Numbered from the stretch's first letter, positions 34,406-51,600 are shown. The stretch is DNA of 53,252 bases from Mayamaea pseudoterrestris (GCA_027923505.1 BROI01000020.1:620001-673252), one strand, 5' to 3'. Notes: generated by a model from the sequence alone, not told the origin. Numbers and translations are program-made.

Positions 34406-35446
34406 CATGCATTCCCGCATTCACGCATTCCCGCATTCCCGCATTCACGCATTCACACATTCCCGCATTCCTGCATTCACGCCTCCTGCATTCATGCATT
34501 CACGCATTCATGCATTCCCGCATTTCTACATTCATGCATTCCTGCATTCCCACATCACACATTCACGCTTTCACGCATTCCCGCACTCACGCATTCACGC
34601 ATTCACACTTTCACACATTCTCGCATTCACGCATTATTCACGCATTCACACATTCACGCATTCACGCACTCACTCATTCACGCATGCACGCATTCACGCA
34701 TTCATGCATTCACGCATTCACACATTCATTCACGCATTCACGCATTCCCGCTTTCCCCCATTCATGCATTCATGCATTCACGCATTCACGCATTCACGCA
34801 TTCCCCCATTCATGCATTCACGCACTCACTCATTCACGCATTCCTGCATTCACGCATTCATGCATTCACGCAATAATGCATTCACGCATTCACGCATTCA
34901 CACATTCCCGCATTCACGCATTAACGCATTTACGCATTCACACATTCACACATTCACGCTTTTACTCATTCACGCATTCATGCATTCACGCATTCACACA
35001 TTCCAGCACTCACTCATTCACACATTCACCCATTCCCACACTCACGCATTCGTGCAATCACACATTCCCGCATTCCCGCATTCACGCATTCACGCATTCA
35101 CGCATTCACGCATTCATTCACGCATTCCCACATACCCGCATTCACGCATTCATGCATTCACGCATTCATGCATTCACGCATTCCCGCATTCACACATTCC
35201 CGCATTCCCGCATTCATGCATTCATGCATTCATGCATTCACGCATTCATTCACACATTCACGCATTCACGCATTCCCCCATTCACGCATTCATGCATTCC
35301 TGCATTCCCACATTCACGCATTCATTTACACATTCACACATTCACGCATTCATTTACACATTCACACATTCATGCATTCACACATTCATGCATTCACACA
35401 TTCCAGCACTCATGCATTCACACATTGACGCATTCACGCAATAACG
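34406..35446. repeat. ~1-kb degenerate octamer tract (CATTCACG)n
   Basis: Continuous units cattcacg, cattcatg, cattcaca, cattcccg, cattcctg. Confidence 0.95.
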
Positions 35447-36101
35447 CATTGGTTGGATGTGCCAGTAAGTCACCTTGTCTGGCTACAGGGATCATCAGTA
35501 CAGCCTTCTGAGCCCTTCAATCCTTCTCCATTCATGTTCGTTGTCATGACGGGCCAATGCTTTGGTCAGCTGCACCCATTCCAGTCTTGGGTCATGTAGT
35601 ATGCCACGGTGAGACTCAGCAGATCCAAGAACTTGTTGGTGGTGCAACTCAAGTGGCACTTCAGACTGCCAGAATGGCCCACCAATCCTGGAAAACAAAG
35701 CTCATGGTGTTTATACTTGATTAGAATGCAAAGGCTTGTCATTTCAGGTGTGGAACCCTTCCCCCTGCCGCGAGACTCCGCACATTCAACCATTGGTTGG
35801 ATGTGCCAGCAAGTCATCCTTTCTGGCTACAGGGACCATCAAAACAAATTCTGAGCCCTTCAATCCTTCTCCATTCATGTTTGTTATCATGACGGGCCAA
35901 TGCTTTGGTCAGCTGCACCCATTCCAGTCTCGGCCACCATGTAGTATGCCATGGTGAGACTTAGCAGATCCAAGAACTTGTTGGCAGTGCAACTCAAGTG
36001 GCACTTCAGACTACCAGAATGGCCTGCCAATCCTGGAAATCAAAGCTCATGGTGTTTTTAATTGATTAGAATGCAAAGGCTTGTCATTTCAGGTGTGGAA
36101 T
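35447..36101. repeat. Tandem duplication with 344-bp period (about 1.9 copies)
   Basis: cattggttggatgtgccag starts at 35447 and 35791. Both copies run collinearly to tcaggtgtggaa. Confidence 0.9.
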
Positions 36102-36129: not shown

Positions 36130-39100
36130 TAGCTGGCTGCCAAGCCACTCCAAACGAATTTGTATGAATTGATAGCTGGCAGTTGACAGGCATTGTTTCA
36201 TGATGTCAATTGTGTAATGCATTCATCACCAGCCCATGTAGTCTCCAAGTTCTGTGACAGGGACTGCCAGAATTTCGTGTCCCCAGGCTTGTCCACAGTA
36301 GCTGGCTGCCATAGCCCACTCCAGCAGCCATAGAGGTATAAATTGATAGCTGGCAGATGACAGGCATTGTTTCATGATGTCAATTGTGTAATGCATTCAT
36401 CAGCAGCCAATGTAGTCTCCAAGTTCTTTGACAGGAACTGCCAGAATTTTGTGTCCCCAGGCTTGTCCACAGTAGCTGGCTGCCATACACCACTCCAACA
36501 GCATGAGAGGTTTAAATTGATAGCTGGCAGATGACAGGCACTGTTTCATGATGTTAAAAGTACAATGCATTCATCACCAGCCCATGTAGTTTCCAAGTTC
36601 AGTGACAGGGACTGCCAGAATTTTGGGTCCCAGGCTTGTCCATAGTAGGTGGCTGCCATAACCCACTTTGACAGCCAAAGATGTATGAATTGATAGCTGG
36701 CAGTTGACAGGCATTGTTTCATGATGTCAAAAGTGCAATGCATTCATCACCAGCCCATGTAGTCTCCAAGTTCTTTGACAGGAACTGCCAGAATTTTGTG
36801 TCCCCTGGCTTGTCCACAGTAGCTGGCTGCCATACACCACTCCGACAGCCAGAGAGCTATAAATTGATAGCTGGCAGTTGACAGGCATTGTTTCATGATG
36901 TCAATTGTGTAATGCATTCATCACCAGCCCATGTAGTCTCCAAGTTCTGTGACAGGGACTGCCAGAATTTCGTGTCCCCAGGCTTGTCCACAGTAGCTGG
37001 CTGCCATACACCACTCCAGCAGCCAAATTTGTATGAATTGATAGCTGGCAGTTGACAGGCATTGTTTCATGATGTCAATTGTGTAATGCATTCATCACCA
37101 GCCCATGTAGTCTCCAAGTTCTGTGACAGGGACTGCCAGAATTTCGTGTCCCCAGGCTTGTCCACAGTAGCTGGCTGCCATAGCCCACTCCAGCAGCCAA
37201 ATTTGTATGAATTGATAGCTGGCAGTTGACAGGCATTGTTTCATGATGTCAAAAGTGTAATGCATTTATAAACAGCCCATGTAGTCTCCAAGTTCTGTGA
37301 CAGGGACTGCCAGAATTTCGTGTCCCCAGGCTTGTCCACAGTAGCTGGCTGCCATACACCACTCCGACAGCCAGAGAGGTATGAATTGATAGCTGGCAGT
37401 TGACAGGCATTGTTTCATGATGTCAATTGTGTAATGCATTCATCACCAGCCCATGTAGTCTCCAAGTTCTGTGACAGGGACTGCCAGAATTTCGTGTCCC
37501 CAGGCTTGTCCACAGTAGCTGGCTGCCATAGCCCACTCCAGCAGCCAAATTTGTATGAATTGATAGCTGGCAGTTGACAGGCATTGTTTCATGATGTCAA
37601 AAGTGTAATGCATTCATCACCAGCCCATGTAGTCTCCAAGTTCTGTGACAGGGACTGCCAGAATTTCGTGTCCCCAGGCTTGTCCACAGTAGCTGGCTGC
37701 CATAGCCCACTCCAGCAGCCAAATTTGTATGAATTGATAGCTGGCAGTTGACAGGCATTGTTTCATGATGTCAATTGTGTAATGCATTCATCACCAGCCC
37801 ATGTAGTCTCCAAGTTCTGTGAAAGGGACTGCCAGACCAGGCTTGTCCACAGTAGCTGGCTGCCATAACCCACTCTAACAGCCAGAGAGGAATAAATTGA
37901 TAGCTGGCAGTTGACGGGCATTGTTTCATGATGTCAATTGTGTAATGCATTCATCACTAGCCCATGTAGTCTCCAAGTTCTGTGACAGGAACTGCCAGAA
38001 TTTTGTGTCCCCAGGCTTGTCCACAGTAGCTGGCTGCCATAGCCCACTCCAGCAGCCAAATTTGTATGAATTGATAGCTGGCAGTTGACAGGCATTGTTT
38101 CATGATGTCAAAAGTGCAATGCATTCATCACCAGCCCATGTAGTCTCCAAGTTCTGTGACAGGGACTGCCAGAATTTCGTGTCCCCAGGCTTGTCCACAG
38201 TAGCTGGCTTTCATAACCCACTCCAACAGCCAGAGAGGAATCAATTGATAGCTGGCAGTTGACAGGCATTGTTTCAAGATGTCAATTGTGTAATGCATTC
38301 ATTACAAGCTGTGTAGTCTCCAAGTTCTGTGACAGGGACTGCCAGAATTTCGTGTCCTCAGGCTACTCCACAGTAGCTGGCTGCCATAACCCATTCCAAC
38401 AGCCAGAGAGGTATAAATTGATAACTGGCTGTTGCCAGGCATTGTTGCATGATGTCAAATGTGCAATGCATTCATCACCAGCCCATGTAGTCTCCAAGTT
38501 CTGTGACAGGGACTGCCAGAATTGCGTGTCAACAGGCTTGTCCACAGTAGCTGGCTGCCATAGCCCACTCCGACAGCCAGAGAGGTATGAATTGATAGCT
38601 GGCAGTTGACAGGCATTGTTTCATGATGTCAAAAGTGCAATGCATTCATCACCAGCCCATGTAGTCTCCAAGTTCTGTGACAGGGACTGCCAGAATTTCG
38701 TGTCCCCAGGCATGTCCACAGTAGCTGGCTGCCATAGACCACTCCGACAGCCAGAGAGCTAGAAATTGATAGCTGGCAGTTAACAGGCATTGTTTCATGA
38801 TGTCAATTGTGTAATGCATTCATCACTAGCCCATGTAGTCTCCAAGTTCTGTGACAGGGACTGCCAGAATTTTGTGTCCCCTGGCTTGTCCACAGTAGCT
38901 GGCTGCCATAACCCACTCCAACAGCCAGAGATGTATGAATTGATAGCTGGCAGTTGACAGGCATTGTTTCATGATGTCAAAAGTGTAATGCATTCATCAC
39001 TAGCCCATGTAGTCTCCAAGTTCTGTGACAGGGACTGCCAGAATTTTGTGTCCCCAGGCTTGTCCACAGTAGCTGGCTGCCATAGCCCACTCCAGCAGCC

Positions 39101-42100
39101 ATAGAGGTATAAATTGATAGCTGGCAGATGACAGGCATTGTTTCATGATGTCAATTGTGTAATGCATTCATCAGCAGCCAATGTAGTCTCCAAGTTCTTT
39201 GACAGGAACTGCCAGAAATTTGTTGCCCAGGCTTGTCCACAGTAGCTGGCTGCCATAGCCCACTCCAGCAGCCAAATTTGTATGAATTGAAAGCTGGCAG
39301 TTGACAGGCATTGTTTCATGATGTCAAAAGTGCAATGCATTCATCACCAGCCCATGTAGTCTCCAAGTTCTGTGACAGGGACTGCCAGAATTTTGTGTCC
39401 CCAGGCTTGTCCACAGTAGCTGGCTGCCATAGCCCACTCCAGCAGCCAAATTTGTATGAATTGATAGCTGGCAGTTGACAGGCATTGTTTCATGATGTCA
39501 AAAGTGTAATGCATTCATCACTAGCCCATGTAGTCTCCAAGTTCTGTGACAGGAACTGCCAGAATTTTGTGTCCCCTGGCTTGTCCACAGTAGCTGGCTG
39601 CCATAACACACTCCAACAGCCAGAGATGTATGAACTGATAGCTGGCAGTTGACAGGCATCATTTCATGATGTCAAAAGTCTAATGCAATCATCACTAGCC
39701 CATGTAGTCTCCTAGTTCTGTGACAGGGACTGCCAGACCAGGCTTGTCCACAATAGCTGGCTGCCATAACCCACTCCCGCAGCCACATTTGTTGGAATTG
39801 ATAGCTGGCAGTTGACAGGCATTGTTTCATGATGTCAAATGTGTAATGCATTCATCACCAGCCCATGTAGTCTCCAAGTTCTGTGACAGGGACTGCCAGA
39901 ATTGCGTGTCCCCAGGCTTGTCCACAGTAGCTGGCTGCCAACTAGCCCACTCCAACAGCCCAGAGGGTATAAATTGATAGCTGGCAGTTGACAGGCATTG
40001 TTTCATGATGTCAAATGTGCAATGCATTCATCACCAGCCCATGTAGTCTCCAAGTTCTGTGACAGGGACTGCCAGAATTTCGTGTCCCCAGGCTTGTCCA
40101 CAGTAGCTGGCTGCCATAACCCACTCCAACAGCCAGAGAGGAATAAATTGATAGCTGGCAGTTGACAGGCATTGTTTCATGATGTCAAAAGTGCAATGCA
40201 TTCATCACCAGCCCATGTAGTCTCCAAGTTCTTTGACAGGAACTGCCAGAATTTCGTGTCCCCAGGCTTGTCCACAGTAGCTGGCTGCCATAGCCCACTC
40301 CAGCAGCCAAATTTGTATGAATTGATAGCTGGCAGTTGACAGGCATTGTTTCATGATGTCAATTGTGTAATGCATTCATCACCAGCCCATGTAGTCTCCA
40401 AGTTCTGTGACAGGGACTGCCAGAATTTCGTGTCCCCAGGCTTGTCCACAGTAGCTGGCTGCCATAACCCACTCCGACAGCCAGATATGTATAAACTGAT
40501 AGCTGGCAGTTGACAGGCATTGTTTCATGATGTCAAAAGTGCAATGCATTCATCACCAGCCCATGTAGTCTCCAAGTTCTGTGACAGGGACTGCCAGAAT
40601 TTCGTGTCCCCAGGCTTGTCCACAGTAGCTGGCTGCCATACACCACTCCAACAGCCAGAGAGGTATGAATTGATAGCTGGCAGTTGACAGGCATTGTTTC
40701 ATGATGTCAAAAGTGTAATGCATTCATCACTAGCCCATGTAGTCTCCAAGTTCTGTGACAGGGACTGCCAGACCAGGCTTGTCCACAGTAGCTGGCTGCC
40801 ATAACCCACTCCAACAGCCAGAGATGTATGAATTGATAGCTGGCAGTTGACGGGCATTGTTTCATGATGTCAAAAGTCTAATGCAAGCATCACTAGCCCA
40901 TGTAGTCTCCAAGTTCTGTGAAAGGGACTGCCAGACCAGGCTTGTCCACAGTAGCTGGCTGCCATACTCCACTCCGACAGCCAGCGAGGTATGAAATGAT
41001 AGCTGGCAGTTGACAGGCATTGTTTCATGATGTCAATTGTGTAATGCATTCATCACCAGCCCATGTAGTCTCCAAGTTCTTTGACAGGAACTGCCAGAAT
41101 TTTGTGTCCCCAGGCTTGTCCACAGTAGCTGGCTGCCATAGCCCACTCCAGCAGCCAGAGAGGTATAAATTGATAGCTGGCAGTTGACAGGCATTGTTTC
41201 ATGATGTCAAAAGTGCAATGCATTCATCACCAGCCCATGTAGTCTCCAAGTTCTGTGACAGGGACTGCCAGAATTGCGTGTCCCCAGGCTTGTCCACAGT
41301 AGCTGGCTGCCATAGCCCACTCCAGCAGCCAATTTGTATGAATTGATAGCTGGCAGTTGACAGGCATTGTTTCATGATGTCAATTGTGTAATGCATTCAT
41401 CACCAGCCCATGTAGTCTCCAAGTTCTGTGACAGGGACTGCCAGAATTTCGTGTCCCCAGGCTTGTCCACAGTAGCTGGCTGCCATACACCACTCCGACA
41501 GCCAGAGAGGTATGAATTGATAGCTGGCAGTTGACAGGCATTGTTTTATGATGTCAATTGTGTAATGCATTCATCACCAGCCCATGTAGTCTCCAAGTTC
41601 TGTGACAGGGACTGCCAGAATTTCGTGTCCCCAGGCTTGTCCACAGTAGCTGGCTGCCATAGCCCACTCTAGCAGCCAAAATTTGTATGAATTGATAGCT
41701 GGCAGTTGACAGGCATTGTTTCATGATGTCAATTGTGTAATGCATTCATCACCAGCCCATGTAGTCTCCAAGTTCTGTGACAGGGACTGCCAGAATTGCG
41801 TGTCCCCAGGCTTGTCCACAGTAGCTGGCTGCCATAGCCCACTCCAGCAGCCAAATTTGTATGAATTGATAGCTGGCAGTTGACAGGCATTGTTTCATGA
41901 TGTCAAAAGTGTAATGCATTCATCACCAGCCCATGTAGTCTCCAAGTTCTGTGACAGGAACTGCCAGAATTTTGTGTCCCCAGGCTTGTCCACAGTAGCT
42001 GGCTGCCATAGCCCACTCCAGCAGCCAAATTTGTATGAATTGATAGCTGGCAGTTGACAGGCATTGTTTCATGATGTCAATTGTGTAATGCATTCATCAC

Positions 42101-43313
42101 CAGCCCATGTAGTCTCCAAGTTCTTTGACAGGAACTGCCAGAATTTTGTGTCCCCAGGCTTGTCCACAGTAGCTGGCTGCCATAGCCCACTCCAGCAGCC
42201 AAATTTGTATGAATTGATAGCTGGCAGTTGACAGGCATTATTTCATGATGTCAGAAGTATAATGCAAGCATCACCAGCCCATGTAGTCTCCAAGTTCTGT
42301 GACACGGACTGCCAGAATTTCGTGTCCCCTGGCTTGTCCACAGTAGCTGGCTGCCATAACACACTTCAACAGCCAGAGATGTATGAACTGATAGCTGGCA
42401 GTTGACAGGCATCATTTCATGATGTCAGAAGTCTAATGCAAGCATCACTAGCCCATGTAGTCTCCAAGTTCTGTGACAGGAACTGCAAGAATTTCATGTC
42501 CCCTGGCTTGTCCACAGTAGCTGGCTGCCATAAGCCACTTCAACAGCCAGAGATGTATGAACTGATAGCTGGCAGTTGACAGGCATTGTTTCATGATGTC
42601 AAAGGTGCTATGCACTCATCAGCAGCCCGTGTAGTCTCCAAGTTCTGTGACAGGGACTGCCAGAATTTCGTGTCCCCAGGCTTGTCCACAGTAGCTGGCT
42701 GCCATACACCACTCCAGCAGCCACATATGTATGAATTGATAGCTAACAGTTGACAGGCATTGTTTCATGATGTCAATTGTGTAATGCATTCATCACCAGC
42801 CCATGTAGTCTCCAAGTTCTGTGACAGGAACTGCCAGAAATTTCGTGTCCTAGGCTTGTTCACAGTAGCTGGCTGCCATAGCCCACTCCAGCAGCCAAAT
42901 TTGTATGAATTGATAGCTGGCAGTTGACAAGCATTGTTTCATGATGTCAAAAGTGTAATGCATTCATCACAAGCCCGTGTAGTCTCCAAGTTCTGTGACA
43001 GGGTCTGCCAGAATTTCGTGTCCTCAGGCTAGTCCACAGTAGCTGGCTGCCATAAGCCACTTCAACAGCCAGAGATGTATGAACTGATAGCTGGCAGTTG
43101 ACAGGCATTATTTCATGATGTCAGAAGTATAATGCAAGCATCACCTGCCCATGTAGTCTCCAAGTTTTGTGACAGGGACTGCCAGAACTTCATGTCCCCA
43201 GGCTTGTCCACAGTAGCTGGCTGCCATACACCACTCCGACAGCCAGAGATGTATGAACTAATAGCTGGCAGTTGACAGGCATTGTTTCATGATGTCAAAA
43301 GTGCTATGCATTC
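36130..43313. repeat. Satellite A: 174-bp tandem array, about 41 monomers
   Basis: gatagctggcag recurs at 36171, 36345 and 36519 (period 174) and onward to ~43260. Monomers are highly similar; four carry the same 11-bp deletion. Confidence 0.97.
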
Positions 43314-43704
43314 ACGAGCGCTGATGTGAAACATGCATTGTTAGGAGGCGTCACTAGTGGAGTCTTCAAAGGGCACGTGGCGACTCACGTGCAAGACTCA
43401 ATCTTAGCACTCCCTCCTCCTGTTGGAGTGCAAATGTTCCTGAGCTCAGTGGTCGACCGGACTGCGAAAGGTCTATCATGCGCCACCCCTTTGAACAAAC
43501 AAGAGGAGCTGATCTGTCCAAACCAGTTGAGCGAGCGATACGTAGTGCCTTCCGTGTTCTCAAACCGGCAATGCATTCACACCAGCCCATGAAGTGTCCA
43601 AGTTCTTGACAGGGACTGCCAGAATCGTCTTCCATTAAGTCCCCAGGCTTGTCCACAGTAGCGTGGCTGCCATAGCCCACTCCAGACAGCACTGTGTATT
43701 GCTA

Positions 43705-45837
43705 GCTGCAATTGGGCATGCACTTGGCTCAGACTGGTGGGAATGGAACGCAGGCTCCGCGGTTTTCTTCTGGCGGTGGCCAGACGCTTTCAGCCGCCAA
43801 CAAAAGCCTGAGTATGCCATAAGTGGTGCTGTCATAAGCAAAGTCAACAAGAACTTGTTGCGCCAGTTCAATCGTCAAGTGGCACAGGAGACTCAGATAT
43901 CTGTCTTGTGTTTGATGCAACAGCAAGTGGGTTGAATGAAGTACTCTTTTCGCCTTGGTTCGCTCTGCCGACAGTGAGCCAAATGGTGCACACAGTCGAC
44001 GTGGGCTACTTCTGTGCCGACAATGACTTTGGTGAAATGTTTTACAACTTCTGGCTCCATAAAGACTTGCGGCACGCATTCAACCACTTGGTCGGAGGAG
44101 CAGCGGTGGCCAGCGGAAGGTCTCTTTACGCTGACTACAGGGACCACCGTCAGCACAGCAGCTTGGCTGAGCCCTTCAAACGTTTTCCATTGGACACGTG
44201 TGAAGCTAAACGTTCCTGGGATGTCGGATTACAACCCAGGCAAACCTTGGATCTGCAAACTGCGAGCAAATGGTGACATTGCAGCAGACATGCATTTGTT
44301 TGTGGATGACGGTCGCACCACTGGGCCCACGGAGGAGGATGCCTGGCAAGGAGGCAGCAAGGTAGCCAAGATGTCAGCCTGGTATGGCTTGCAAGATGCA
44401 GCCCGAAAACGGCGGCCTCCAAGCCAGACTCCAGGGGCCTGGTCTGGGTCAGTTGTGGCGACAACGGCCGATGGGGTCTTTCTGTCAGTGTCGCAGGAAC
44501 GGTGGGACAAGACAAAGACTGCAGTGCAGTGGATTGCGGCGCAGTTGGGAAACAATCCGGTCGAGATTGAATTCAAGCCCCTCGAGCGCTTTAGGGGTTT
44601 CCTGGTGTATGTGGGTCAGACATATCGAGCAATGGTTCCTTACCTTCAAGGAATACATTTGACATTGGATAGCTGGAGGCCAAACCGAGATGACAAAGAA
44701 TGGCGGTTGGCAAGGAGTGCCTGGCCCGAGGAACTGGACAGCGCAGTAAACTTGAGTGTGGAAGATCCAAAGGCTCCTGAGCGCGTTAAAACAGTTGAGT
44801 GTCTGGCGTCGGATGTAGATGCGCTACTGCACTTGACACATTACAAGAAGCCACCTCAAGTGACGGCTCGGCCAAGCAGTTGTGCGCGAGTGGTGATTGG
44901 GTTTGGAGACGCATTGGGCAATGGATTTGGAGTGTCAGAGGCAGACAATAAAGGAGGTTATCAAGCAATTTGATACGTCTATGGCGTGTGAGAGAAGGAA
45001 GTCAGCCAGGAGTCGTCAAATTTTTTGGGAGCTTAACTACTTTGTCATCCGTGTCGAGTCAGGACTAAGGAACGGTGACATTAAACCTGGAACTGAGTTC
45101 TTTCTTTTCACAGACAACTTTGTGACCGAGCGTGCCTTCTACAAGGGTACGAGCAAGGCCAAGGTTCTTTTAAGCTTGGTACTCCGGCTCCGAAAGTTGG
45201 AAATGGAAGGAAGCATATTCCTCCATATCATCTGGTGCGCTGGCAAGCGAATGATTGCTCAAGGAACCGATGGGCTATCTTGCGGTGACTTGGCTAATGG
45301 AGTGCTTATTGGGCAGTCCATGCTTGATTTTGTGCCCCTCCACTTGTCGGCTTCCCAGCACGCTCCACAGCTCCACATCTGCAGAAATGGATGCTGACAT
45401 GGTGCCCTGACAATGCCCAATTTCTCAGTGCTCCAGAGTGGTTTGATAGCGCTCACGTCAGCGAGTGTCCGATGGTTTGGATTCCGCCGCCAGCTCTCTG
45501 TGATGTCGCCGTGGAACAGTTGTGTGAAGCGCGACACACCCGGCCAAATGTTTTCCACTGCGTGGTTGTTCCCAACTTGATGACAAGCCGGTGGAGGAAG
45601 CAGTTGCGGAAGGCTAGCAACGTCATGTTCACCATTCCCATAGGAGTGGACTTTTGGGGAGAGGAGATGTTTGAATCGCCAACACTAGCACTTGTTTTCC
45701 CTCTTCTTCCTCAAAGCCCTTGGCAGATGCGGCATTTGGAATCGGTTAGAGAGGCGGAACGCGAACTGTCAGGAGTGTGGAAAGGACTTGAAGACCAGCG
45801 AAGCGCTGAAGTGTGCAAACTTTGGCTTCAGGCGTGA
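43705..45837 (+). pseudogene. pol-like ORF remnant: reverse transcriptase, RNase H and MT-like domain
   Basis: WWEWNAGSAVFFWRWP; DICLVFDATASGLN...WFALPT...DNDFGEMFYNF (RT motif A region); LFVDDGR (YxDD equivalent); GFLVYV. RNase H: GFGDALGNGFG, SSNF-x-EL, FLFTDN, TDGLSCG. VWIPPP...VVVP. Stops at 44971 and 44989; frameshifts near 44170, 45021-45026 (T run) and 45362-45377 (8-bp duplication gctccaca). Confidence 0.88.
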
Positions 45838-47234
45838 ACAATGGCACGACTGTGAGGGTGTGTGGCATTGGAGCTGCTATCGAGCGTCGGGAGACGATGA
45901 TTACCCACGACAGCACTTGCTTGGAGATGAAGGCAGTTTTGAGGAAGACGAGCTGAGGGAGGAGGACCGTTTCCAAGTGGCAAGGCGCGGGGATCATTTA
46001 CTGTGCCCTTTTCAGTGTGATCTTTGCCACTTTCGAAACTTGCGGGCGAAGGAACCGGATATTTGGAAGGAGACAGATGCGAAACTTTTAGTTGCTTTGC
46101 GCCAAGCAATTTTGGATTCCTTCTGGTCAAGAGAGAAGTCAACGGTGGAGTCCAATTGGCGAGAGAGAAATCATGTAGCGAAGGCGATGACAGCGTTTGG
46201 TTTCGAGCAAGAGCCTGTACAAGCCGAGGTTAAGCCGTACCCCACATTCGACAGCTGGGGCATGTTTCAAGCAGTTACCCTGTTACACCGCTCTTTAGAC
46301 GCGGGCAAAAATTCTGCGACTATCCAATTTGGGACAATGCGACGCTTGCGGACGCACTTCACTAACCTGGCGCTCACGAAGCCGGATGGCGTTCAATTGA
46401 CAAGCATCACTGGAATGCAAGGAGCGCAGCATTTCAGTGACAGTCCTACGCACTCGTATTGGTTCAAGCGTTTCCTTGAAGGGTGCCACAAGCGCATGGG
46501 AGATAATGTGCAACCTGATCGAGGGGTAACGATAGACATGATGCTTAAGTTGCAGGTGGTCTTTGAGGAGGACTGGTCCTCGGGCCAGGGTGCGGAATGT
46601 CTGGAATTGGCTCAACTGGCGTGTTTCATTTTGGCTGGTTTTGCTGGGGGCCTGCGAGGGGAAGAAGTTCTAAAGGCCGAGCTTTCCCCCACCCTGGAGC
46701 ATCTGGACGAAAGCCTTACTCATCCAAGAAAGAAGCACTTCACTCTGGGACTGCTTGGACGGGTCAAGGGAGAGTGAGGCGACCAATGCCATCTCCTTCC
46801 GCTCACTCTGGTGACACACTCTGGGCTACAAAATTGGACATTGGTTCTGCCGGTTATTGAACGAGTACGCCACCATTGGAGTGTCCAGTGGACCAATGTT
46901 TTGGGTAGACAGACGAGGAAAGTCAAGCCGAGGGTGCGTTGCGGATTACAACCCACGTTTCCATGAGTACCTGCGAATGATCCAAGGCCGGTGGCCGGAG
47001 GTGCTCAGTACTGGAGTTGACGTGACGGAGTTTGGACTTCTGCGCTCACTGCGAAGAGGTTCTACTGCTCAAGCAAGGAACCGGAAGGTAAAGGACAGTG
47101 TTATTGAGAGTAACAACCGTTGGCGGAAAGTGGAAAGGGCAAAAGGAAGGCAAGTTCACGTTGGAATGATGGAGCACTACTCCGACGTGACTGCATCAAT
47201 TGAGACCCTATTGATTTACTCGGAATCGTTGTAG
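45692..47234 (+). pseudogene. Tyrosine recombinase with Cys/His-rich N-terminus, interrupted by one stop and one frameshift
   Basis: GGLRGEE (Arg I), GRVKGE (Lys), RSLRRGSTAQA (HxxR equivalent), NNRWRK (Trp), MMEHY (Tyr nucleophile). TGA at 46775 and a +1 shift near 46823. The ORF overlaps the pol 3' end in another frame, as in DIRS-order elements. Confidence 0.88.
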
Positions 47235-47324
47235 CAGCAGTGCCCACTGACAACGCGGGCACTGTGGGACCAATACATGATCACAAGCGATTGCCGAGTA
47301 AGGGAGAAAGCAGAGACCAAGGGG

Positions 47325-47780
47325 GCAGGAAAGCGGAGCTTTATTCTATTTTATGGAGTAAGGTTCTGACCCGCTTCTTTTCATTCAGACCGTTCGGGAG
47401 AGCTACAGCGTTTACCTTATCGCGTCACCGCGCTTTGTGGGGCAGCCACAGAGCGTTGGAGATCCTCACTGGCTTGTCCATCAGCGCGGCCATAGGTTTG
47501 ACTCACGAGTCGAGGTCGACTAAAGTCCTCGCTGGAGTTTCTCGTGAAGGGAACGAAGCCACTACAGAGTGGTGAAGAAGGGGGCTCACTGAACGAATCC
47601 CAGAGGGATTCCGAAAGGAATCGCACTGGGTCTCGCGCAGGGCGCTTTGCTTGCAGGGCGGACCGGGGAACCTGATCAGTAGCACCAGGTGCAAATGGTA
47701 TATGTTACGAAAGTCGTTTCGTCTTCTAAGAGAATGAAGTAGTAAAGTGTCAACATGGACTGATGAAAGAAGTACCACCA
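47325..47780 (+). repeat. Split direct repeat B1 of the YR retrotransposon
   Basis: gcaggaaagcggagctttattc... matches 47990 onward at an offset of 665 bp. Nearly identical for ~330 bp, then indel-rich up to the shared end gaagtaccacca. Confidence 0.9.
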
Positions 47781-47989
47781 CAACAGCCAAGCTACGAGCG
47801 TCACAACGGAACCACGAGTCAACGGATTTGGGGGCAATTGAATAGCATTGGAGGCCATCCAAGTTGCAAGGAGACGAAACGATCAGTTGTTGCAAGTGGA
47901 GCTTGATTGCTGTCGACCCAAGAATTAACGAGATCTCTCTTGGGAGCAGTATAAAGGCTTGATTTGTTTAATTTTCCCACCCACCCACC

Positions 47990-48467
47990 GCAGGAAAGCG
48001 GAGCTTTATTCTATTTTATGGAGTAAGGTTCTGACCCGCTTCTTTTCATTCAGACCGTTCGGGAGAGCTACAGCGTTTACCTTATCGCGTCACCGCGCTC
48101 TGTGGGGCAGCCACAGAGCGTCGGAGATCCTCACTGGCTTGTCCATCAGCGCGGCCATAGGTTTGACTCACGAGTCAAAGCCGACTAAAGTTTTTGCTGG
48201 AGTTTCTCGTGAAGGGAACGAAGCCACTAGAGAGTGGTGAAGAAGGGGGCTCACTGAACGGATCGCAGAGGGATTCCGAAAGGAATCGCACTGGGGCTCG
48301 CGCAGGGCGCTTTGCTTGCAGGGCGGACCAGGGACTTAACCTACCCCCAACTGGGTGCAGTAGCACTAGTGGTCAAATGTTATATGTTACGAAAGTCGTT
48401 TCGTGTCTAAGAGAATGAAGTAGTAGTTCAACATGGAGTCATGACTAAGCGAGAAGAAGTACCACCA
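47990..48467 (+). repeat. Split direct repeat B2 (3' terminus of the element)
   Basis: Second copy of 47325-47780. Similarity ends at gaagtaccacca (48467). Confidence 0.9.
47994..48420 (+). ncRNA. Candidate ~430-nt structured cis-acting RNA of unknown class (also present in B1)
   Basis: Several hairpins and nested long-range stems found by eye, many with G-U pairs, which favours + strand RNA. Details in findings. Confidence 0.55.
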
Positions 48468-48667
48468 TGGATACGGCCTCCACTGTGGGTATGGCCAACA
48501 CCACAAGTTGTAGATTCTGACCTGTCAAACGTCCCATGCCCTGGCCTCCCAAATACCCAATAAGTCAGGCAAATCATGTCCAGCGTATGCCATTGACAGG
48601 TGCAGAGTCTCAAATGGTGCAAAAAGGACTGCCTGGAGGCTGACACCATGGGTACAGCCTCCACTGT
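48463..48667. repeat. Single ~181-bp unit bounded by direct repeats (possible third satellite monomer)
   Basis: accatggatacggcctccactgt at 48464 and accatgggtacagcctccactgt at 48645 (period 181). Confidence 0.6.
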
Positions 48668-51600
48668 TTGGTGACAAGTTGTCACCAAATACATTGCCAT
48701 CCCCTGAGACACCAGCCAAGCCTACCATCTTGTAGCGCAGCCTGATTAAGGATGTTGGCACCATTCTGGTATATTTTGAGCACCAACAGGGCTTGCTGAA
48801 GGGGCGTTTAAATGTCATGGCATCTGCGGGCTGAGACTGGTGACAAGTTGTCACCAAATACATTGCCATCCCCTGAGACACCAGCCAAGCCTACCATCTT
48901 GTAGCGCAGCCTGCATAATGATGTTGGCACCATTTTGGTGTATTTTTAGCACCTACAGGGCTTGCTGAAGGGGCGTTTGAATGTCACGTCATCTGTGGGC
49001 TGAGACTGGTGACAAGTTGTCACCGAATACATTGCCATCCCCTGAGACACCAGCCAAGCCTACCATCTTGTAGCGCAGCATGATTAAGGATGTTGGCACC
49101 ATTCTGGTGTATTTTGAGCACCAACAGGGCTTGCTGAAGGGGTGTTGAATGTCACGGCATCTGCGGGCTGAGACTGGGGACAAGTTGTTAGCAAATACAT
49201 TGCCATCCCCTGAGACACCAGCCAAGCCTACAATCTTGTAGCGCAGCCTGAATAAGGATGTTGGCACCATTCGGGTGTATTTTGGGCACTTACAGGGCTT
49301 GCTGTAGGGGCATTTAAATGTCACGGCATCTGCGGGCTGAGACTGGTGACAAGTTGTCACCAAATGCATTGCCATCCCCTGAGACACCATCCAAGCCTAC
49401 CATCTTGTAGCGCAGTCTGAATAATGATGTTGGCACCATTCGGGTGCTTTTTGGGCACCTACAGGGCTTGCTGGAGTGGTGTTTGAATGTCACGGCATCT
49501 GCGGGCTGAGACTGGTGACAAGTTGTCACCAAATACATTGCCATATCCTGAGACACCAGCCAAGCCTACCCACTTGTAGTGCATCCTGAATAATAATGTT
49601 GGCACTATTCTGGTGTATTTTAGGCACCTACAGGGCTTGCTGTAGGGGCGTTTGAATGTCATGGCATCTGCGGGCTGAGACTGGTGACAAGTTGTCACCA
49701 AATGCATTGCCATTCCCTGAGACACCATCCAAGACTACCATCTTGTAGCGCAGCCTGAATAAGGATGTTGGCACCATTCGGGTGTATTTTGGGCACCTAC
49801 AGGGCTTGCTGTAGGGGCGTTTAAATGTCACGGCATCTGCGGGCTGAGACTGGTGACAAGTTGTCACCAAATGCATTGCCATCCCCTGAGGCACCCGACA
49901 ATCCAAAGGGGCATTTAAATGTCACGGCATCTGCGGGCTGAGACTGGTGACAAGTTGTCACCAAATGCATTGCCATCCCCTGAGACACCATCCAAGCCTA
50001 CCATCTTGTAGCGCAGTCTGAATAATGATGTTGGCACCATTCGGGTGCTTTTTGGGCACCTACAGGGCTTGCTGGAGTGGTGTTTGAATGTCACGGCATC
50101 TGCGGGCTGAGACTGGTGACAAGTTGTCACCAAATACATTGCCATATCCTGAGACACCAGCCAAGCCTACCCACTTGTAGTGCATCCTGAATAATAATGT
50201 TGGCACTATTCTGGTGTATTTTAGGCACCTACAGGGCTTGCTGTAGGGGCGTTTGAATGTCATGGCATCTGCGGGCTGAGACTGGTGACAAGTTGTCACC
50301 AAATGCATTGCCATTCCCTGAGACACCATCCAAGACTACCATCTTGTAGCGCAGCCTGAATAAGGATGTTGGCACCATTCGGGTGTATTTTGGGCACCTA
50401 CAGGGCTTGCTGTAGGGGCGTTTAAATGTCACGGCATCTGCGGGCTGAGACTGGTGACAAGTTGTCACCAAATGCATTGCCATCCCCTGAGGCACCCGAC
50501 AATCCAATCATCTTGTAAGACAGTCTGTAAGACAGTCTGAATAATGATGTTGGCACCATTCGGGTGCTTTTTGGGCACCTACAGGACTTGCTTTAGGGGC
50601 GTTTGAATGTCAAGGCACCTGCAAGCTGAGACTGTTGACAAGTTGTCACCAATATCAGTTCTGAGACACCAGCCAAGCATACCATCTTGTAGCGCAGTCT
50701 GAATAATGATGTTGGCACCATTCGGGTGCTTTTTGGGCACCTACAGGACTTGCTTTAGGGGCGTTTGAATGTCAAGGCACCTGCAAGCTGAGACTGTTGA
50801 CAAGTTGTCACCAATATCATTGCAGTCTTCTCAGATCCCAGCCAAGCATACCATCTTGTAGCGCAGCCTGAATAATGATGTTGGCATCATTCTGGTGTGA
50901 TTTGGGTGTATACATGGCTTGCTGTAGGGGCGTTTGAATGTCAAGGCACCTGCAGGCTGAGACTGGTGACAAGTTGTCACCAATATCATTGCAGTCTTCT
51001 GAGACACCAGCCAATCATACCAGCTTGTAGAGCTGCCTGAATAATGATGTTGGCATCATTTTGGTGTGATTTGGGTGTATGCATGGCTTGCTGTAGGGGC
51101 GTTTGAATGTCAAGGCATCTGCGGGCTGAGACTGGTGACAAGTTGTCACCAATATCATTGCAATCTACTGAGATCCCAGCCAAGCATACCATCTTGTTGC
51201 GCAGCCTGAATAATGATGTTGGCATCATTCTGGTGTGATTTGGGTGTATACATGGCTTGCTGTAGGGGCGTTTGAATGTCAAGGCTGCATCTGCAGGCTG
51301 AGACTGGTGTCAAGTTGTCACCAATATGATTCCAGTATTCTGAGACCCCAGCCAAGCATACCATCTTGTAGCGCAGCCTGAATAATGATGTTGGCATCAT
51401 TCTGGTGTGATTTGGGTGTATACATGGCTTGCTGTAGGGGCGTTTGAATGTCAAGGCATCTGCAGGCTGAGACTGGTGACAAGTTGTCACCAATATCATT
51501 GCAGTCTACTGAGACACCAGCCAAGCATACCATCTTGTTGCGCAGCCTGAATAATGATGTTGGCATCATTCTGGTGTGATTTGGGTGTATGCATGGCTTG

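Follow-up and report, generated by a model that had tools for sequence, protein, structure and literature searches.

A Truncated Retrotransposon Between Two Satellite Arrays

The window, by which we mean the whole stretch of 53,252 nt from Mayamaea pseudoterrestris that was analyzed (GCA_027923505.1 BROI01000020.1:620001-673252), contains the remnant of a retrotransposon that sits between a 174-bp satellite and a 169-bp satellite. The features that can be delimited in this remnant are listed below by their positions in the window, and all of them lie on the + strand.

43700-45837, +: pol remnant (RT-RNase H), missing its 5' part and spread across four or more reading frames
43812-44276, 43978-44973 (with an FVDD motif), 44897-45397, and 45328-45837, +: pieces of the pol ORF, from the ORF list
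45689-47234, +: tyrosine recombinase (YR) gene, frameshift-broken into 45689-46777 and 46815-47234, with its stop at 47234
47300-47324, +: purine-rich tract with a G-run end, polypurine-tract-like, directly 5' of B1
47325-47780, +: B1, the 5' copy of B, a split direct repeat
47781-47975, +: A2-type spacer between the B copies, holding TATAAAGG at 47950-47957 and ending T-rich
47976-47989, +: C-rich motif CCCACCCACCCACC, directly 5' of B2
47990-48467, +: B2, the second (3') copy of B, which contains the region 47994-48420 of the initial annotation
48463-48467, +: CACCA, common to the end of B2, the B1/A2 junction (47776-47780), and the uninterrupted 169-bp satellite (copy near 48648)

As far as identity alone is concerned, we are nearly certain that this remnant is an old, dead, 5'-truncated copy of a Ngaro-like (DIRS-order) tyrosine-recombinase retrotransposon. 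In its complete form, such an element is laid out as A1-gag-pol-YR-B1-A2-B2; A1, gag (ORF1), and half of pol are gone from the window copy, which begins at approximately residue 600 of pol. The two B copies are spaced 209 nt apart, and the A2-type spacer between them has no second copy within the window; A1 is not visible there because this copy is truncated at its 5' end. In the relative L060, which encodes ORF1 (877 aa), pol (1370 aa), and YR (522 aa) in this order, an A-type segment is repeated upstream of ORF1. The L060 proteins gave no Pfam match to a methyltransferase, the domain whose absence sets Ngaro apart from PAT and DIRS-1, in a search where Pfam recognizes none of the domains of the family either. 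Split direct repeats are seen in the window as B1 and B2, and B1/B2 pairs likewise follow the YR stop in nine relatives. Given this B1-A2-B2 tail after the YR stop, we assign the element to the Ngaro/PAT layout A1-[ORFs]-B1A2B2, which is described for Cafeteria Ngaros in PMC8547959.

The 174-bp satellite occupies 36130-43314 with 41.6 copies and degenerates up to ~43690, whereas the 169-bp satellite extends from ~48463/48669 to the end of the window (53252) and is also scored as a 338-bp higher-order period. An array of (GCATTCAC)n is present at 34409-35450 (132 copies). The stretch occurs in five sequencing runs from two studies, all of them contig-stored and none listed as RNA. In runs X1 and X2, depth rises ~1000-fold or more at 48463, and loose ends show satellite context. 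A comparison of four runs revealed that the element family is multi-copy and is accompanied by a diverged subfamily, which differs at 19 positions and has 5 gaps across 47990-48116 and is unalignable at 80% beyond that point. From the three contexts in which it is found, CACCA is likely to be the crossover core of a recombinase insertion into the satellite, and this insertion would have taken place without target duplication.

Proteins Encoded by the Element and Its Relatives

Homologs of the YR protein number 160 at E<=0.001 and include entries named Attheya sp. and a Pseudo-nitzschia gene model, names that may point to diatoms. The AlphaFold model of one YR homolog, P0001 (pLDDT 85.2), matches Cre, lambda integrase, and Xer by fold, with 12 PDB chains at E<=0.001 and a best value of 8.7e-05. 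By fold, the family pol model matches the RTs of MMLV, CaMV, foamy, HIV, and Ty3 together with RNase H, in a search that returned 260 chains at E<=0.001 from a model whose pLDDT is only 64.7 and whose TM-scores are 0.13-0.33 for full-length RT chains. Y(V/I)DD is conserved without exception across an alignment of 12 pol ORFs, the Atlas lead for pol is RVT_1 at 0.92, and the window piece 43978-44973 shares 49% identity with the intact pol of L060 (1370 aa) over residues 754-928 of the latter. Sequence searches of PDB returned no match, and a PDB profile search with pol returned only the Ty3 RT at an E of 0.28, which is not significant. Neither Pfam nor NCBIfam matched the ORF pieces of the window or the proteins of intact relatives; therefore, RT and YR are recognizable only by fold. 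By these fold matches, the element encodes an RT with RNase H and, in place of a DDE integrase, a tyrosine recombinase.

The family of YR retroelements in marine and freshwater metagenomes is large, with at least 261 loci (tblastn) and 160 proteins, and the N-terminus of its YR protein carries a conserved cysteine/histidine motif, FQCDxCHF. Among viral contigs, 121 pattern matches included no relative of the element. The comparisons described later use 79 related loci taken from metagenome contigs with a YR alignment, and the lineages whose B repeats were compared have YR proteins 33-43% identical to the YR of the window.

Some of these contigs have further properties. L016, L037, L041, L059, L075, and L079 (and also L018), which are 6.2-8.9 kb long, have identical ends of 97-174 nt, and the ends of L065 (4.9 kb) are alike over 86 nt at 93%. 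The identical ends look like assembly circles formed from the split repeats, as is expected when repeats of this kind collapse in assembly, or possibly like circular or tandem forms of the element. In L055, L057, and L054 there is ~1.4 kb past YR that is 73% conserved between L055 and L057, and this segment resembles coding sequence when read on the opposite strand, so that it may be an additional gene of that sub-lineage.

The Two B Copies and Their Edges

The initial annotation had described 47994-48420 as the B repeat of a retroelement that folds into a large multibranched RNA of unknown class. That the region is such a B repeat is borne out by the comparison of its two copies, which keep an offset of 665 over the first ~345 columns and are 96% identical over 300 nt and 89% identical over the 482 aligned columns to the end of the repeat. 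The first 110 columns are identical (47325-47434 vs 47990-48099), and this identical start ends within the 5' arm of H2, one of the hairpins described later; columns 111-345 contain 15 substitutions, mostly transitions, and indels come after these. We considered the identical 110-nt start as a mechanistic landmark and rejected it, as it does not recur in L066. In this relative, the sole one whose B copies have diverged, the first difference falls at column 51 and the remaining differences are evenly spread. From the start of B, an open frame of ~85 codons runs in both B1 (47204-47575) and B2 (47929-48240), with five amino-acid differences between the two and without sign of constraint.

Several B1/B2 differences had been noted initially to exchange Watson-Crick for G-U pairs. 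Approximately five substitutions of this kind do occur in the listed stems, along with one that breaks a terminal pair, but they provide no evidence for selection. Half of the transitions in Watson-Crick pairs give G-U, so ~5 swaps against one broken pair are what chance would produce. In addition, the two copies had one template at insertion and were therefore identical at that time, which means that their differences say nothing on selection. We thus rejected these differences as covariation evidence and, with a common template at insertion and a copy that is dead, regard them as post-insertion noise.

A purine tract that ends in a G run is located directly before B1 in the window (47300-47324) and in 9/9 relatives with a defined B1. 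Its position is that of a polypurine tract, which makes it a candidate site for priming of the plus strand. Before B2, a C-rich motif of the CCCACCC type is found at a distance of 0-38 nt in 9/9 relatives with a defined B2, and a T-rich stretch precedes this motif (47972-47989 in the window). L060 carries the C-rich motif between A2 and B2 and lacks it at the A1/ORF1 junction. The purine and C-rich flanks pair with each other in the MFE structure of 7/9 units, and in L031/L079 the pairing partner of a G run is a C run located ~290 nt further downstream. Lineage-specific pairing of the flanks was tried and rejected: cognate duplexes reach -18.1 kcal/mol vs -16.9 kcal/mol for non-cognate ones, and 1793/20000 permutations were as good. 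Because flanks of one unit do not match each other significantly better than flanks of different units, their complementarity is the generic one of G with C.

The A2-type spacer also contains a TATA-like box, TATAAAGG (47950-47957), which lies 26 nt upstream of the C-rich motif and 40 nt upstream of B2. In the context of A1, such a box would make transcription begin close to the A/ORF1 edge. An ATG is located 28 nt beyond this edge in L060.

Predicted RNA Fold of B2

When compared with shuffled sequences on both strands, the region proves to be better folded on the + strand and not on the - strand. For 47990-48425, the MFE of the + strand is -165.6 kcal/mol vs -144.35 +/- 5.73 kcal/mol for 100 dinucleotide shuffles, giving a z of -3.71 with 0/100 shuffles as good, whereas the - strand has a z of -1.00 with 15/100 shuffles as good. 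The first 300 nt of B1 give a z of -3.36 on the + strand and -1.79 on the - strand, and the 300-nt window of B2 gives -3.76 on the + strand. For the 22 coding 300-nt windows of the element, z ranges from -2.36 to +1.03 on the + strand (mean -0.14), and one of them reaches -2.85 on the - strand. In 6/7 of the 300-nt windows starting at 47150-48050, z is <= -1.96, and the last ~150 nt of B2 are no better than shuffles (z -0.37 and -0.38 in the last two windows). Five of the local hairpins can be listed with their predicted pair probabilities.

48000-48032, +: H1, 14 bp (five of them G-U), 10 nt into B; 0.93-0.97
48096-48120, +: H2, 10 bp, G+C-rich; 0.99
48162-48179, +: H3, 7 bp with a CACG loop; 0.87 in B2 alone
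48272-48287, +: H4, 6 bp, GAAA loop; 1.00 in each of the three contexts
48389-48404, +: H6, 6 bp near the 3' end of B, ambiguous; 0.15-0.43

All of the stems drawn in the initial annotation exist in the sequence where they had been placed. H1 has 14 bp (five of them G-U), H2 has 10, H3 has 7, H4 has 6, H5 has 8, and H6 has 6 bp; of the long-range stems, L1, L3, and L4 have the pairing that was stated, and AGAC/GTCT and CAGCG/TGCTG each occur once in fitting places. With respect to predicted formation, the hairpins H1-H4 were recovered (0.87-1.00), H6 is ambiguous, and H5 (8 bp, 48308-48325) fails, as it has a 2-nt loop when written in this way, is sterically impossible, and has a probability of 0.02. 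The probability of H3 falls to 0.04 when B1-A2-B2 is folded jointly. The first 60 nt of B have a z of -3.04 on the + strand, with 3/200 shuffles as good, and of -0.12 on the - strand. Conservation of H1 in the diverged subfamily was not counted, because either 11 bp or 8 bp are kept depending on the placement of a 3-nt gap.

The nested long-range stems that would join these hairpins into one multibranched architecture did not hold up. Their mean pair probabilities are 0.05 (L1), 0.00 (L2), 0.04 (L3), 0.01 (L4), and 0.00 (L5), and 0/30 of their pairs are part of the MFE structure. The best structure with all of the pairs initially proposed, calculated after removal of one pair from H5 and one from AGAC/GTCT, has an energy of -154.7 kcal/mol, which is 10.9 above the MFE. 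By the measure of these folding models, the local hairpins H1-H4 and the overall excess of structure are real, and the long-range multibranch drawing is one among many poor alternatives. What remains of the large multibranched RNA is a terminal repeat whose local hairpins are real.

Structure in the B Repeats of Relatives

Among the 79 related loci, 9 have a B1/B2 pair, which begins 53-406 nt past the YR stop (L007, L021, L023, L040, L046, L056, L060, L066, and L078). For the first 300 nt of B in these nine relatives, the + strand z values are -0.81, -1.70, -3.98, -2.81, -1.93, -4.24, -0.37, -2.31, and -4.12, resulting in a mean of -2.47 (range -0.37 to -4.24), and the mean on the - strand is -2.0. 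Coding controls at the same nine loci have means of -0.45 (+ strand) and +0.38 (- strand). The z of B is below that of the coding control in 8/9 loci, and it is near zero in 2/9 relatives (-0.37 and -0.81). A universal hairpin at the 5' end of B was also considered and rejected, since only 5/13 tested loci had <=7/200 shuffles as good; in 3/13 loci the z of this hairpin test was positive.

Five pairs of relatives are alignable in the post-YR region and were analyzed using alifold with column shuffles. The alifold z of L031/L079 is -7.0 for the + strand, where the coding control has -0.8, and -4.7 for the - strand, where the control has -1.1; for L010/L018 the two values are -5.3 (control +1.5) and -5.2 (control -0.6). 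No conserved fold was detected in L028/L045, L005/L012, and L053/L065 (alifold z -1.2, +0.3, and -1.0, respectively). The two conserved folds are located directly after the YR gene, at L031:2690-3040 / L079:7660-8010 and at L010:3005-3330 / L018:8701-9026, and the latter consists of a ~195-nt hairpin module repeated in tandem. In counts that are biased towards structure, because there are two sequences in each pair and the structure was derived from the same two, L031/L079 keeps 99/99 pairs with 6 changed on both sides (7/500 shuffles as high) and L010/L018 keeps 91/91 pairs with 7 changed on both sides (0/500 shuffles as high). G-U pairs are kept in L031/L079. Two of the five alignable pairs therefore keep their fold via compensatory changes, and the structure is conserved and covarying in two sub-lineages. 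For the family as a whole, there are hints that structure is selected but lineage-specific.

Searches for Known and Shared RNA Families

We searched 43000-48800 against Rfam 15 at E<=10 and obtained four chance (snoRNA-like) matches, the best of which scored 20.4 bits against a gathering score of 42; the same search of 20 relatives at the gathering threshold gave 0 matches. The initial annotation was thus correct in recognizing no known RNA family, with no Rfam match beyond chance in the window or in the 20 relatives. ARAGORN found no tRNA gene in the element.

For comparison between lineages, a covariance model (R1) of the 5' domain of B, with 136 nt and 45 pairs, was trained on B1 and B2. 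At E<=10 over the window and the 79 loci (441,590 bases), R1 gave two matches, both of which are its own training copies. When the 3' region of the window was compared with the 79 loci by blastn and nhmmer, only the short C-rich motif was found in common. Because R1 finds only itself and neither blastn nor nhmmer detects similarity within B, we conclude that there is no conserved RNA class across lineages. The designation of B as an RNA class was accordingly abandoned, as the B repeats of different lineages have neither sequence nor covariance-model similarity to each other.

Interpretation of the B Repeat

We propose, with a probability of roughly 0.55, that B is the terminal redundancy of a Ngaro-like element and at the same time a lineage-specific cis-acting RNA region of it, and that it is neither a conserved class nor a ribozyme. 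According to this proposal, the genomic RNA would run through B1-A2 into B2, and B would be transcribed twice near the 3' end. The B copies would supply the homology for template switches that rebuild the full element, the purine/G tract abutting B1 would prime the plus strand, and the B hairpins would be lineage-specific signals that are read by the element's own RT during initiation or strand transfer. A role of B in RT recognition, priming, or packaging, which had been suggested from the outset, is what we infer here. Counted against the proposal is that the support for the window's own B fold comes from folding statistics of this one family copy. Far more tentatively, and with the odds clearly against it, the B+A unit bracketed by the purine/G and C-rich motifs could be a selected lineage-specific multibranched domain for RT initiation or template switching. 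L031/L079 and L010/L018 may be instances of such a domain, and the window's B would be another.

The self-complementarity of B could instead act in DNA or cDNA, or be a by-product of recombinase arm sites or of a promoter or terminator, without any selected RNA fold, and we regard this as a serious competitor that nevertheless falls well short of even odds. The - strand of the relatives is nearly as structured as the + strand, both in the nine loci with a defined B (mean z -2.0 vs -2.47) and in L010/L018 (-5.2 vs -5.3), so palindromes in the DNA, or the cDNA strand, could be the source of the signal. Inverted repeats such as those of Cre/loxP and the lambda att sites are binding sites of tyrosine recombinases, the A2-type spacer contains a TATA-like box, and DIRS-1 makes single-stranded cDNA intermediates (PMC7192593). 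In the window, however, the signal is strand-specific, with z values of -3.71 (+) and -1.00 (-), and it depends on G-U pairs, five of them in H1, which argues against an action in DNA because the opposite strand would have C-A mismatches in their place. L031/L079 similarly folds better on the + strand (-7.0 vs -4.7) and keeps its G-U pairs.

It is improbable that B is simply a G+U-rich noncoding stretch of a dead element that folds well by chance, without selection. The statistic for the window concerns one sequence and 100 shuffles, two coding windows reach z values of -2.36 (+) and -2.85 (-), and the differences between B1 and B2 are uninformative; yet 0/100 shuffles reach the MFE, B1 and B2 are both below all 22 coding windows, 8/9 independent relatives have the same tendency relative to coding controls, and there are compensatory changes in two pairs of relatives. 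Least probable by far is that B represents a new self-cleaving ribozyme or an autonomous ncRNA class that defines the transcript end, as had been suggested initially. No known family explains B, we found no paper describing RNA structure in these repeats in the literature surveyed, and the TATA-like box 40 nt before B2 could conceivably give rise to a separate B transcript. Ribozyme classes such as hammerhead, HDV, and twister keep their catalytic cores over far larger distances, whereas the B repeats of lineages with 33-43% YR identity share no sequence or model similarity. B is also without a ribozyme signature and has no Rfam ribozyme match at E<=10, and the long-range helices that were proposed for it have probabilities of <=0.05.

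Comparison with Known Retroelements

Structured RNA in a terminal repeat is an idea familiar from retroviruses and from LTR and non-LTR elements. Hairpins have a role in the R/U5 RNA of retroviruses, and the B+A unit resembles an LTR in that it acts in an LTR-like manner, has a purine tract abutting its 5' edge, and forms a terminal repeat with stable predicted hairpins. It differs from LTRs in that the repeat of the window element is split, integration is by a tyrosine recombinase and not by a DDE integrase, and ARAGORN finds no tRNA gene in the window element. Non-LTR RTs, for example that of R2, recognize structures in 3'-UTRs, and retroelement ribozymes include HDV-like ones in R2 and hammerhead ones in Penelope-like elements and retrozymes. 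B has in common with these elements a cis-acting RNA structure in a terminal region, but it has no Rfam match to a ribozyme or UTR, and its element has another mode of replication.

The closest resemblance in layout is to Ngaro/PAT-like elements, which have the organization A1-[gag, RT/RNase H, YR]-B1A2B2 with B1-A2-B2 after the YR stop, as given in PMC8547959. The window element is also like them in having been inserted without evident target duplication at a short core (CACCA) that is common with the target, and unlike them in that the RT and YR of its family have no Pfam or NCBIfam match and are recognized by fold only. In titles and abstracts on Ngaro polypurine tracts, we did not find the purine/G tract and the C-rich motif described. 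For DIRS-1, no primer for reverse transcription is known, and how elements of the DIRS order start is an open question according to PMC7192593, which also quotes the suggestion of Poulter and Goodwin that a 3' fold-back hairpin is the primer. Like that hairpin, those of B are stem-loops at the 3' end of a YR retroelement, within its terminal repeat; in contrast, DIRS-1 of Dictyostelium has a single short hairpin in an inverted-repeat element, and the window has several hairpins in a direct repeat. Structured repeat RNA or ribozymes were not found described for Ngaro/DIRS YR elements with split direct repeats in the literature surveyed. We therefore regard the element as a further Ngaro-like member with a structured terminal repeat of a kind that we did not find described for such YR elements.

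Implications for Tyrosine-Recombinase Retrotransposons

Because its copy is dead and truncated and its own B is without usable relatives, the window alone leaves the question of priming unanswered. The family as a whole, a large marine group of YR retroelements that is invisible to Pfam and recognizable only by fold, offers cis elements that bear on this question, namely the purine/G tract at the edge of B1, the C-rich motif at the edge of B2, and the + strand hairpins inside B, and the covarying folds in two sub-lineages are further concrete targets. If the B+A unit is indeed a selected domain for RT initiation or template switching, these elements would constitute the first concrete cis-element map for the priming and completion of reverse transcription in tyrosine-recombinase retrotransposons.
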